Positions 15,844 to 16,624 of a DNA stretch of 37,480 nucleotides are shown here, piece by piece. The stretch is taken from IMG/VR virus record IMGVR_UViG_3300050505_000174; one strand, written 5' to 3'. The DNA comes from a virus. The translations under genes and the position numbers were made by a program. Numbering within the stretch: position 1 is the stretch's first letter; the number at the start of each line of letters is the position of its first letter. The notes under the pieces are model-generated. The model worked only from the letters and a program-made list of their open reading frames with translations, searched no databases and had not been told where the DNA came from.

Positions 15844-15919
15844 TATTTTCTCCTTAGTTAATAAGATTTGCACCTATCATAGTAAGTAAAAGTTGCTTAA
15901 AGCAAGCTATAATTAGTAC

Positions 15920-15947
15920 TTGATATATACGTATATATGTATATATT
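15920..15947 (+). promoter_or_regulatory. Candidate promoter for the plus-strand island
   Basis: TTGATA (15920-15925), 16-nt spacer, TATATT (15942-15947). This would place a start near G15955, where the GC-rich element begins. The region is a (TA)-rich tract, so the call is soft. Confidence 0.35.
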
Positions 15948-15954
15948 TATATAT

Positions 15955-16051
15955 GGCGATGTAGCTGAGAAACAAGTTGTCCGTTGATCTGGATAATGTA
16001 GCGCTAGGCTGTAAGTCCTAGAGTACGCGGGTGTGAGTCCTTGCCTACGCC
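15955..16051 (+). ncRNA. GC-rich tRNA-like / degenerate tRNA element (non-canonical)
   Basis: A cloverleaf can be drawn by hand. The acceptor-like helix pairs GGC..GUAG with CUACGCC, U8-A9 follows, and GCUG pairs with UAGC across an oversized 31-nt D-loop. The anticodon-like stem CUAGG/CCUAG carries an 8-nt loop CUGUAAGU, followed by a 5-nt variable region. The T-like arm GCGGG-UGUGAGUC-CUUGC resembles GCGGG-UUCGAGU-CCCGC. It does not fit a canonical tRNA. Confidence 0.3.
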
Positions 16052-16109
16052 AACCTTATAAAAAACAGAATCTAGAGAAATGTTAAATACCCGACGGGGT
16101 GGTAAATAA

Positions 16110-16235
16110 GTGAGTGTGAGATCATTTATTTATTATGAAGAATTTACATTTCATGCAATGAAATATCCCCGTAATAATGATCACAACATAGTAAAAAAAT
16201 GGTTCAACAGTTACCAGGGATATTTCAACATATAA
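16110..16235 (+). CDS. Possible 41-codon micro-ORF (GTG start)
   Basis: Frame is open 16110..16235 (VSVRSFIYYEEFTFHAMKYPRNNDHNIVKKWFNSYQGYFNI). The RBS is weak and an internal ATG at 16158 is an alternative start. Confidence 0.25.
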   Translation: MSVRSFIYYEEFTFHAMKYPRNNDHNIVKKWFNSYQGYFNI

Positions 16236-16245
16236 AGGATTATGA

Positions 16246-16395
16246 ATGAAAATGGTAAGAAGAACGCCAAATGGTAGAAAAGTAGTATATACCCCCAAAG
16301 AAGGGGATATATGGTTTGATACTTCTACAGGAAAAACATATGTTTTCTTTGAAAGAAGTCAAAAATGGGTTTTACAAGAAGAAAAGGACAAGTAA
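16246..16395 (+). CDS. 49-aa protein carrying a fibre-N-terminus-like W-x-D...Y-V-F...W-V motif
   Basis: ATG 16246 preceded by AAAGGA. Translation is MKMVRRTPNGRKVVYTPKEGDIWFDTSTGKTYVFFERSQKWVLQEEKDK. Its stop TAA abuts the next ATG. Confidence 0.5.
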   Translation: MKMVRRTPNGRKVVYTPKEGDIWFDTSTGKTYVFFERSQKWVLQEEKDK

Positions 16396-16565
16396 TGGAA
16401 TCAAATTCAACATCAATAAGAAAATGCCCTAAAAGAATGATAATTAATATTCCCGATGAAGTGCATTGGATTATTAAAAATAAAGCTCACAATAAGAATA
16501 TGACGCTAAGCAGGTATGTTTTACAGTCAATTCAGATGAGGATTAAGCAAGAGGAATCAGTATGA
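16396..16565 (+). CDS. Ribbon-helix-helix (CopG/Arc-like) DNA-binding protein (56 aa)
   Basis: KRMIINIPDEVHWIIKNKAHNKNMTLSRYVLQSIQMRIKQEE fits a beta-strand plus two helices. Start taken at MESNS, directly after the upstream stop. The track ORF starts at 16365. Confidence 0.65.
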
Positions 16566-16624
16566 TAATAGCAGTCACTTTAGTTATATCTGTTGTTTTG
16601 CTTTTAGAGTATTTAACAAGCTAA
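16562..16624 (+). CDS. 20-codon hydrophobic peptide ORF overlapping the RHH stop (ATGA)
   Basis: GAGGA Shine-Dalgarno lies 6 nt upstream of ATG 16562. Translation is MIIAVTLVISVVLLLEYLTS. It ends tail-to-tail with gene 16621..17874. Confidence 0.4.
   Translation: MIIAVTLVISVVLLLEYLTS

Follow-up and report, generated by a model that had tools for sequence, protein, structure and literature searches.

A plus-strand cassette with a ribbon-helix-helix protein and a predicted membrane micro-protein inside the virion-gene block of a soil-phage genome

The viral genome IMGVR_UViG_3300050505_000174 from IMG/VR, analyzed here as one stretch of 37,480 nucleotides (the window), carries nearly all of its virion genes on the minus strand, including those for terminase, portal, major head protein, virion structural proteins and several fibre/tailspike-like proteins. 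Inside this block, at about 15906-16656, lies a plus-strand island of three open reading frames (ORFs) with overlapping boundaries, which encode a 49-amino-acid (aa) protein, a 56-aa ribbon-helix-helix (RHH) DNA-binding protein and a 20-aa hydrophobic micro-protein. With moderate confidence, we regard this island as a self-contained accessory or regulatory operon, that is, a divergent-promoter cassette headed by an RHH gene, with swappable cargo and a membrane micro-protein, and as a positional analogue of the immI/sieA region of phage P22. A plus-strand unit within minus-strand structural genes had been noticed in a first-pass annotation made from the letters alone, and both the ORF layout, between the minus-strand genes 14776-15846 and 16621-17889, and a reversal in the sign of GC skew and AT skew over the island agree with it. 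The GC content of the island is 29-35%, vs 36-43% in the flanks. The analysis supports a discrete opposite-strand unit with its own sigma-70-like promoter. Every relative recovered carries some form of the island, with a content that differs by lineage.

The comparison covers the following metagenomic contigs. L001, L002 and L003 (~96% DNA identity) carry an 83-aa version of the 49-aa ORF, the RHH gene, an 80-aa ORF and a 19-aa hydrophobic ORF, and L004 (~80% DNA identity) has the same layout as the window. The islands of the other lineages contain a DUF551 protein, an RHH protein and a sigma-70 region 4 protein in L005 (RHH 80% identical; the contig ends there); an RHH protein, a sigma-70 region 4-like protein, SpoVG and a 20-aa peptide in L006 (RHH 71% identical); an RHH-like protein, a 92-aa protein, a Zn-ribbon-like protein and a 27-aa peptide in L007 (neighbouring gene 56% identical); the RHH protein alone in L012 (RHH 51% identical); and an RHH protein and a ParD_like protein in L013 (RHH 34% identical; the contig ends there). 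All of these lineages have the RHH gene divergent from a fibre gene, even where RHH identity has fallen to 27-51%, and in the six lineages that were aligned the N-terminal domain of the fibre protein is homologous. Where sequence is available on the other side, a gene of the type found at 16621-17889 in the window, which encodes a 422-aa structural protein, converges on the island, L012 excepted. In L012 the convergent gene encodes a 376-aa tailspike-like protein (K1-lyase_C), and the space between the RHH and fibre genes is ~90 nt.

Transcription of the island would start from a sigma-70-like promoter, TTGATA-16 nt-TATATT (15920-15947, plus strand), which matches the consensus at 10 of 12 positions and has its expected start near 15954-15956. 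Promoter-like hits over the whole region were not enriched (6 found vs 11.6 expected), and the support for this site comes from its conservation and from a set of tandem boxes, not from the regional hit count. The promoter tract is the most conserved DNA segment, 92% identical to L004 vs 65-83% for most neighbouring segments, and a 30-nt block at the promoter is identical in L004; the TA-rich promoter-like tract proposed earlier is borne out. The promoter sits within an array of four tandem 8-bp boxes, TATATACG / TATATATG / TATATATT / TATATATG (15924-15955; direct-repeat family D1, 8-nt spacing), with the consensus TATATAYG. The array occurs once in the genome, no second such array being present, and it constitutes a putative operator for the RHH protein. 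Tandem boxes are also found in the relatives: they are TATATA-type in L005 and L012 (TATATAC in L012) and TGTACA-type with the same 8-bp period in L006, and L007, in which the RHH sequence has diverged, has tandem 9-bp ATTGACAA repeats. A predicted DNA-reading strand of the RHH protein with MIINIP or LIINIP is paired with TATATA-type boxes (window, L004 and L012), and the strand LVIKVP of L006 with TGTACA-type boxes. MetJ binds tandem 8-bp met boxes, and the box arrays, as read from the sequence, are compatible with an autoregulated RHH protein that would bind tandem boxes.

A candidate promoter for the tail-fibre gene was read by eye on the minus strand at 15876-15905 (-35 TTGCTT, 18-nt spacer, -10 TATGAT at 15881-15876), back-to-back with the island promoter. 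It was under the threshold in the consensus scan, and the block that contains its putative -10 element, ATCATAGTAA, is retained in L004 and L005. The RHH protein may affect fibre transcription too, and the island of L012, which consists of the RHH gene only, argues that the protein has a target beyond its own cargo.

The RHH gene occupies 16395-16565 on the plus strand and starts in a TAATG overlap with the upstream stop; its mechanical ORF is 66 aa long from 16365, and the 56-aa start is at 16395. The RHH assignment of the first-pass annotation was confirmed by structural modelling and fold comparison. In the AlphaFold2 model (predicted local distance difference test score 81), helices at residues 21-33 and 38-55 follow an extended KRMIINIP segment. 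Every top Foldseek match in the PDB is an RHH protein (Arc, KacA, CopG, VapB, ParG, AtaR and PutA), with probabilities of 0.9-1.0 and target-normalised TM-scores up to 0.83, and Arc is the top fold match. Single-sequence matches were sub-threshold (Pfam NikA-like, E = 0.03; PHROG Arc-like repressor, E = 0.0026), and in a profile search, the kind of check that had been proposed, a family profile of 34 members matched the ParD N-terminal RHH domain (2an7) with E = 1.4e-5 and ParG with E = 1.4e-3. Pfam ParD and HicB match 19 and 17 of these 34 relatives, respectively. A whole-library HMMER search found 98 short RHH relatives, and two homologues were labelled 'HicB family' by the Joint Genome Institute. 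The ratio of nonsynonymous to synonymous substitution rates (omega) is 0.07-0.19, and nine substitutions relative to L001 leave the protein unchanged. The domain covers residues 13-55 of the 56 aa, homologues are 51-63 aa long, and a toxin-binding extension is absent.

The 49-aa gene precedes the RHH gene at 16246-16395 (plus strand). Its omega of 0.09-0.44 and its Shine-Dalgarno sequence AAAGGA bear out the ORF that had been marked there, and, as for the other two ORFs of the island, the substitution pattern reflects purifying selection. The protein is conserved in L004 and, in its 83-aa version, in the L001 lineage only, and matched no family in Pfam, PHROG, PADLOC or NCBIfam. Three contigs with an identical 49-aa protein (L008-L010) are 100% identical over the island. 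In L005 the slot of this gene is occupied by the DUF551 protein (294-536; E = 5e-11).

Translation of the gene after the RHH gene is coupled to that of the RHH gene, whose last codons, an invariant EES, double as the Shine-Dalgarno sequence, and this position holds variable cargo. The window and L004 have the hydrophobic peptide here. L005 has a sigma-70 region 4 protein (700-948; E = 2.6e-9), and so, with a weaker match, does L006 (527-919), where a SpoVG homologue comes next (935-1210; E = 1e-8). The cargo consists of Cys-rich small proteins in L007 and of the ParD_like protein in L013. Islands with sigma-70 region 4 or SpoVG proteins (L005, L006 and the P0007 contig) represent an unusual transcription-related cargo within a virion-gene block. 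The 80-aa ORF of L001 (6090-6332) overlaps the RHH gene by GTGA. Its product has an N-terminus like a signal peptide (MKILLLLLLPFSCLA), is rich in Tyr, Asp and Glu over the rest of its length, and matched no family in Pfam, PADLOC or NCBIfam. The island proteins matched no PADLOC or NCBIfam model, and membership of any PADLOC defence system was rejected for want of a match. No Pfam, PADLOC or NCBIfam hit to a toxin of known family was obtained for an adjacent gene at the island.

The 20-aa micro-protein, MIIAVTLVISVVLLLEYLTS, is encoded at 16562-16624 (plus strand). The ATGA overlap with the RHH stop and the GAGGA Shine-Dalgarno sequence, 6 nt upstream, are both present as first described, and the ORF is conserved. 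It is the sole hydrophobic ORF of 15-35 codons with a 5-mer Shine-Dalgarno sequence on either strand of the 37.5-kb window (75 kb when both strands are counted), and its product has a mean Kyte-Doolittle value of 2.26. The ORF and the convergent 422-aa gene meet stop against stop, with an overlap of 4 nt that is also seen in L004, L006 and L007. Homologues are found in L004 (MILSVTIVLSVVLLLEYLTS) and L006 (MILCITIFLSAILILDYLTS), and analogues in L001 (MLALILFLFLLSLLWECYV, 19 aa) and L007 (MSFLYIFFGITMFLAVDWVIDVMLDNH, 27 aa). All five ORFs lie at the distal end of their islands with GAGGA or GGAGGA 4-6 nt before the ATG, and all five peptides share a hydrophobic run, then an acidic and then an aromatic residue. 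Among the window, L004 and L006, none of the other five frames is conserved as well as the plus frame of the peptide (mean BLOSUM62 3.30 vs <=1.98), and nucleotide differences at codon positions 1/2/3 number 18/4/25. The few differences at position 2 (4/47) indicate that the central T, which specifies hydrophobic residues, is protected, and the amino-acid changes preserve hydrophobic character. Omega is 0.15-0.58, and the start, stop and Shine-Dalgarno sequence are retained at 19-27% nucleotide divergence. These micro-ORFs were left uncalled on every metagenomic contig. Taken together, the sequence features suggest a real micro-protein that would insert into the membrane as a single helix. The case is harder to make for L001, where the ORF lies antisense within the 3' end of the convergent 458-aa gene and chance is harder to exclude.

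The peptide is not bound to the RHH gene: it is preceded by SpoVG in L006, by the Zn-ribbon-like ORF in L007 and by the 80-aa ORF in L001. It tracks the allele of the convergent gene instead, homologous peptides occurring with 422-aa alleles of 71-95% identity and divergent ones with alleles of 56% (L007) and 23% (L001) identity. The window and L001 show a mosaic breakpoint exactly where the RHH gene ends, which indicates that the peptide and the 422-aa gene were swapped as one block. Across this block (16557-20141, vs L001 6085-10046), identity stops at the last RHH codons and resumes ~3.6 kb later, and L001 has genes for 458-aa and 442-aa proteins in place of the 422-aa and 401-aa proteins, the 458-aa protein being 23% identical to the 422-aa protein. 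Synteny of the RHH gene and the peptide ORF, which the first-pass annotation had suggested as a check, is found in L004, L006, L001-L003 and L007. The annotation had also named the loss of the peptide frame from a phage that keeps the RHH gene as a finding that would speak against it; taken literally this is the situation in L001, yet a similar 19-aa hydrophobic ORF stands at the end of that island. The two genes do recur together, but a specific coupling of the toxin/antitoxin type is not supported, given the bare RHH domain, the varying coupled gene and the solitary RHH gene of L012.

Upstream of the 49-aa gene, the predicted transcript is non-coding from ~15955 to 16245, which gives a leader of ~290 nt with two conserved hairpins. 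Hairpin A (16099-16136, plus strand) has an AU-rich 15-bp stem, which is present in both the minimum-free-energy and the centroid structure, and its pairs survive changes on both sides in L004 and L005. Hairpin B (16159-16227, plus strand; inverted repeat I9) is built from a perfect 11-bp stem, UGAAAUAUCCC/GGGAUAUUUCA, and an inner stem, and the sequence of its apical loop is conserved; L005 shows a compensatory change from C-G to A-U, and another pair there has gone from A-U to G.U, which only the plus-strand RNA tolerates. Compared with column-shuffled alignments, the z-score is -7.4 for hairpin B (three lineages) and -4.8 for the whole leader; single-sequence folding gives z = -2.0. The hairpins leave the Shine-Dalgarno sequence unsequestered, and no U-run comes after them. 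The leader is absent from L006 and L007, and a scan of viral contigs with the hairpin B motif returned one contig, which was already known. Rfam matches to the leader were absent at gathering scores, and at E up to 10 they were chance-level matches to families other than tRNA. Between the window and L001 there are 0 substitutions over 380 nt (15886-16265, covering the promoter, the leader and the first codons), and the flanking coding DNA differs by 3-4%; this identity would reflect a leader under strong constraint or else an exchange that took place recently. Between the loop of hairpin A, GUGUGAGAUCAUU (16113-16126), and the apical one of hairpin B, AAUGAUCACA (16176-16187), complementarity reaches 90% in the window (I15) and, by eye, 11/11 positions in L005, and it could reflect loop-loop or alternative pairing.

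Two further elements marked in this region by the first-pass annotation did not stand. The GC-rich segment at 15956-16056 (plus strand) that had been read as tRNA-like is not a tRNA: ARAGORN found 0 tRNA genes and Rfam no tRNA, and its folding is no better than that of shuffled sequences (z = +0.41). The consensus fold of two sequences is not significant either (alignment-shuffle z = -1.8). The segment is the least conserved of the region (65% identity to L004), is mostly missing in L005 and is absent from L006 and L007. A tRNA or a tRNA-derived attP remnant was also rejected on the basis of a T-loop and acceptor stem that are non-canonical by eye, together with the negative ARAGORN and Rfam results. 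The GC-rich core that resembled a tRNA is a 22-nt tandem duplication at 16007-16050 (GGCTGTAAGTCCTAGAGTACGC / GGGTGTGAGTCCTTGCCTACGC, 77% identical). The possible 41-codon ORF (16110-16235) exists mechanically, yet it is non-coding: its frame is not retained in L004, omega is ~0.9 and no Shine-Dalgarno sequence precedes it. Only its last 25 codons, which hairpin B overlaps, are shared with L004, and their synonymous divergence (dS) is 0.09 to L004 and 0.33 to L005, vs 0.6-0.7 to L004 in real genes. Conservation of this stretch at all codon positions indicates a nucleic-acid element.

Based on these results, the operon would work as follows. Transcription would start at the sigma-70-like promoter within the four TATATAYG boxes, and RHH dimers, probably arranged side by side in the manner of MetJ, would bind the boxes and repress their own operon. 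The same protein may modulate the back-to-back fibre promoter, which lies ~15 bp (-35) to ~40 bp (-10) leftward. The transcript would comprise the ~290-nt leader with its two hairpins, followed by three coupled genes (49-aa, RHH and peptide), and the middle of the operon would serve as a swappable cargo slot. In the cell membrane, the peptide would act on the DNA delivery of related phages, as in superinfection exclusion of the SieA or HK97 gp15 kind, an action proposed because the peptide sequence changes with the adjacent 422-aa allele. The cassette would be expressed outside the late programme; by analogy with the known systems, superinfection exclusion or non-late expression is plausible. 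A more elaborate version, which we consider doubtful, treats the RHH protein and the ~20-aa terminal peptide, with its ~15-residue hydrophobic run followed by an acidic and an aromatic residue, as a minimal two-component module. In it, the peptide, which would be the smallest of its kind, would insert into the membrane, recognise the transmembrane or hydrophobic region of the convergent ejection-like protein and block DNA delivery by phages with the matching allele, or would kill when RHH repression lapses, and the leader would be a new cis-regulatory RNA that times expression.

Several points weigh against the operon as an exclusion cassette. No integrase or other lysogeny gene was recognised in the apparently complete 37.35-kb genome, and exclusion expressed from a prophage is therefore left without a demonstrated life-cycle stage. 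Simple genetic linkage could account for the co-variation of the peptide and the 422-aa allele. A helix that spans the membrane would usually need more than the 15 hydrophobic residues present here, and the known superinfection-exclusion (Sie) proteins are, to our knowledge, much larger than 20 aa. The peptide ORF of L001 is antisense to an acidic C-terminal tail, and such tails can yield hydrophobic ORFs by chance. L012 has an RHH gene without the peptide, which means that the peptide is not essential to the role of the RHH protein. A scan for an intrinsic terminator closing the operon gave no clear one. Finally, the comparative evidence comes from five to seven lineages only, five informative and two distant.

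Other explanations were weighed against the same evidence. An unlikely one is that the island is mainly a switch for the divergent fibre promoter, operated by the RHH protein and, in relatives, also by the proteins like sigma-70 region 4 and SpoVG, the small ORFs being passengers. It draws on the divergence of the RHH gene from a homologous fibre gene in every lineage, L012 included, on the uniqueness of the box array in the genome, on the transcription-related cargo of L005 and L006 and on the conserved candidate -10 element adjoining the boxes. The candidate fibre promoter, however, did not reach the scan threshold, and selection on the peptide and the secreted-like cargo of L001 would be left unexplained; moreover, a fibre switch overlaps the proposed operon instead of excluding it. 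Somewhat less probable still is a toxin/antitoxin-like or abortive-infection arrangement, in which the peptide would be a membrane-depolarising toxin of the Ibs/Fst/TisB type under transcriptional repression by the RHH protein, freed when the RHH protein is lost or when a phage induces a shut-off. In the five closer lineages the island has the RHH gene at one conserved end and the peptide at the other, the peptide resembles type I toxins in size and hydrophobicity, and the RHH sequence is nearest to the DNA-binding domains of the antitoxins ParD, HicB and VapB. Yet the 56-aa protein is without a C-terminal toxin-binding segment, other genes separate it from the peptide in L001, L006 and L007, and L012 dispenses with the peptide. 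In addition, an order with the repressor first and the toxin last, under strong translational coupling, offers no differential control, and the curated toxin and defence models of PADLOC and NCBIfam were unmatched. A strict toxin-antitoxin reading fails because there is neither a toxin-binding region nor a conserved partner.

The peptide could also be controlled as in a type I system, with the 3' end or read-through of the convergent late 422-aa transcript acting as the antisense RNA, which we consider very unlikely. The 4-nt stop overlaps in the window, L004, L006 and L007 leave no room for an intergenic terminator, and the peptide ORF of L001 is wholly antisense to the 458-aa gene. Against this, no dedicated antisense promoter or small RNA was found and Rfam gave no match, the stop overlap may be mere genome compaction, and the peptide is the last cistron of an operon, not a stand-alone toxin mRNA with a structured 5' untranslated region (UTR). 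Both this antisense scheme and the toxin-plus-repressor arrangement are less likely than the RHH cassette. It is equally improbable that the 20-aa ORF is not functional and that the 55-nt spacer between the RHH and 422-aa genes is kept for some other reason, for instance as a 3' UTR or for termination signals, its open frame being a coincidence. In favour of this are the shortness of the ORF, a T-rich plus strand that would make hydrophobic codons more likely, an open minus-strand frame in continuation of the 422-aa gene, found in both the window and L004, and the lack of any such ORF in L012. This possibility is opposed by the superior conservation of the plus frame, the sparing of codon position 2 and the retention of start, stop and Shine-Dalgarno sequence at the divergence given above, as well as by the presence of a like ORF with the same Shine-Dalgarno spacing in the non-alignable sequences of L007 and L001 and by the singularity of the ORF in the window.

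The island flanks and the rest of the genome were also inspected. The window represents a complete circular assembly of ~37,353 bp (~37.35 kb), as its positions 1-127 are an exact copy of 37354-37480; this 127-nt end repeat resembles an assembler overlap. No resemblance to this genome was found among 50,697 GenBank phage records in DNA and protein searches. Scans of metagenomic contigs with alignments of the 422-aa family, of viral contigs with the 422-aa protein and its alignment, and of genome contigs with the terminase and the RHH alignment returned no match. A broad RHH alignment proved too diverse for use in a locus scan. The site had been placed between ejection-protein and fibre genes. 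The fibre side of this placement holds, since the divergent gene 14776-15846 (minus strand) is tail-fibre/tailspike-like (PHROG tail spike, E = 6.8e-11); on the other side, the convergent 422-aa gene (16621-17889, minus strand) and the gene for the 401-aa protein are putative ejection genes by position, and neither has a family match in Pfam or PHROG. The 422-aa protein has a hydrophobic C-terminal region (...AGIKSLILPAIGYGASGPGAAAVGLLG...). A weak terminator-like hairpin, CTCAAA-TCCC-TTTGAG followed by TTTTTATT (16633-16656, plus strand), was read by eye under the scan threshold; it falls within the 3' end of the convergent 422-aa gene, L004 has a similar hairpin, and it is a possible 3' end of the island transcript. 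A minus-strand terminator-like hairpin at 16287-16312 was rejected, as it falls among the codons of the 49-aa gene and L001 does not retain it.

Elsewhere in the window, a second small insert is present in the fibre gene cluster. It consists of a 37-aa ORF whose product has a hydrophobic helix at its N-terminus and a tail of charged residues (8403-8516, minus strand; MIVVFILFVIVAALLVKLIEQEKEF...) and an 84-aa ORF (8611-8865, plus strand), the C-terminal half of which is, by eye, like a Cro/C1-type helix-turn-helix protein (4524-4814) and the ORF at 6644-6889. The gene for that helix-turn-helix protein (minus strand; Pfam HTH_26, E = 2.4e-5) adjoins a single-stranded DNA-binding protein (SSB) gene (4058-4522) and is divergent from small plus-strand genes at 4904-7167, with which it probably forms an early-region switch. 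Two adjacent 64-aa ORFs at 28927-29312 (minus strand), between the head genes and the portal gene, are extremely lysine-rich (...KKAAKKKGKLGKRARLAETLKGLSKRKKK) and may encode DNA-binding or internal proteins. The ORFs at 32173-32409 and 32912-33529 (both minus strand) have N-termini of the MNWI... type and are DUF551-like by eye.

Among known systems, the closest in position is the junction of the ejection-protein gene 16 and the tailspike gene 9 in P22, which holds mnt-arc-ant and sieA (PMC8022706, PMC10883804). SieA is a membrane protein that blocks DNA entry via the ejection proteins (PMC8022706, PMC10883804). The island appears to occupy the corresponding junction in the virion-gene block, the ejection-gene identity here being positional; the P22 region is headed by the small RHH repressors Arc and Mnt at closely spaced divergent promoters and the island by a putative RHH repressor at candidate divergent promoters, and a membrane protein, predicted for the peptide here, stands alongside. 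The best PHROG hit and the top fold match of the island RHH protein likewise point to Arc. The two regions differ in that the island lacks an ORF as large as Ant, gave no hit to Ant or SieA in either PHROG or Pfam, and has one RHH protein vs two in P22. In sequence, this RHH protein is nearest to ParD/HicB-type domains, not Arc or Mnt, and is Arc-like by fold only. The membrane component is just 19-27 aa long, and this phage is unrelated to P22 at the sequence level.

The remaining comparisons concern the individual parts. As in MetJ, Arc and CopG, the island RHH protein is a bare beta-alpha-alpha domain of ~45-55 residues, and as for MetJ, the predicted operator is a set of four tandem 8-bp boxes overlapping its own promoter; TATATAYG is, however, unrelated to the known operators, and no co-repressor is known. 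ParD, HicB and VapB antitoxins have a DNA-binding domain similar at the profile level (ParD 2an7, E = 1.4e-5), but the island has no toxin-binding C-terminal region and no ParE, HicA or VapC partner, and its downstream gene varies. The peptide is of the same size as type I toxins (18-35 aa; Ibs, ShoB, TisB, Fst and PepA1), which, as generally described, resemble it also in having one hydrophobic helix and a C-terminal end that is polar and in overlapping a convergent transcript. In contrast to them, the peptide is unmatched by curated NCBIfam models, has no dedicated antisense RNA that could be found, is the last cistron of what appears to be a protein-regulated operon and has an acidic, not a basic, tail. 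HK97 gp15 is a small membrane exclusion protein encoded by a moron within the tail operon (PMC3594210). The island resembles it as an insert, probably transcribed independently, within a virion-gene operon that encodes a small, here predicted, membrane protein, with a specificity that would be tied to the DNA-delivery apparatus of the incoming phage. Nevertheless, gp15 and SieA are several-fold larger than the island peptide, which has no homologue of known function.

The linkage between the peptide and the 422-aa allele makes an exclusion role the most attractive function for the cassette. Two of its components are possibly new, namely the structured leader RNA and the family of 19-27-aa membrane micro-proteins. 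If the proposed reading is correct, the arrangement in P22 would not be an enterobacterial peculiarity but a recurrent solution, found also in a sequence-unrelated clade of soil phages. The island offers a bare RHH protein with a predicted tandem-8-bp operator, a ~130-nt conserved structured leader without an Rfam family and a micro-protein family of 19-27 aa that was missed by gene callers. Phage micro-proteins this small are systematically under-annotated, and a demonstrated function in exclusion or toxicity would aid the annotation of morons.

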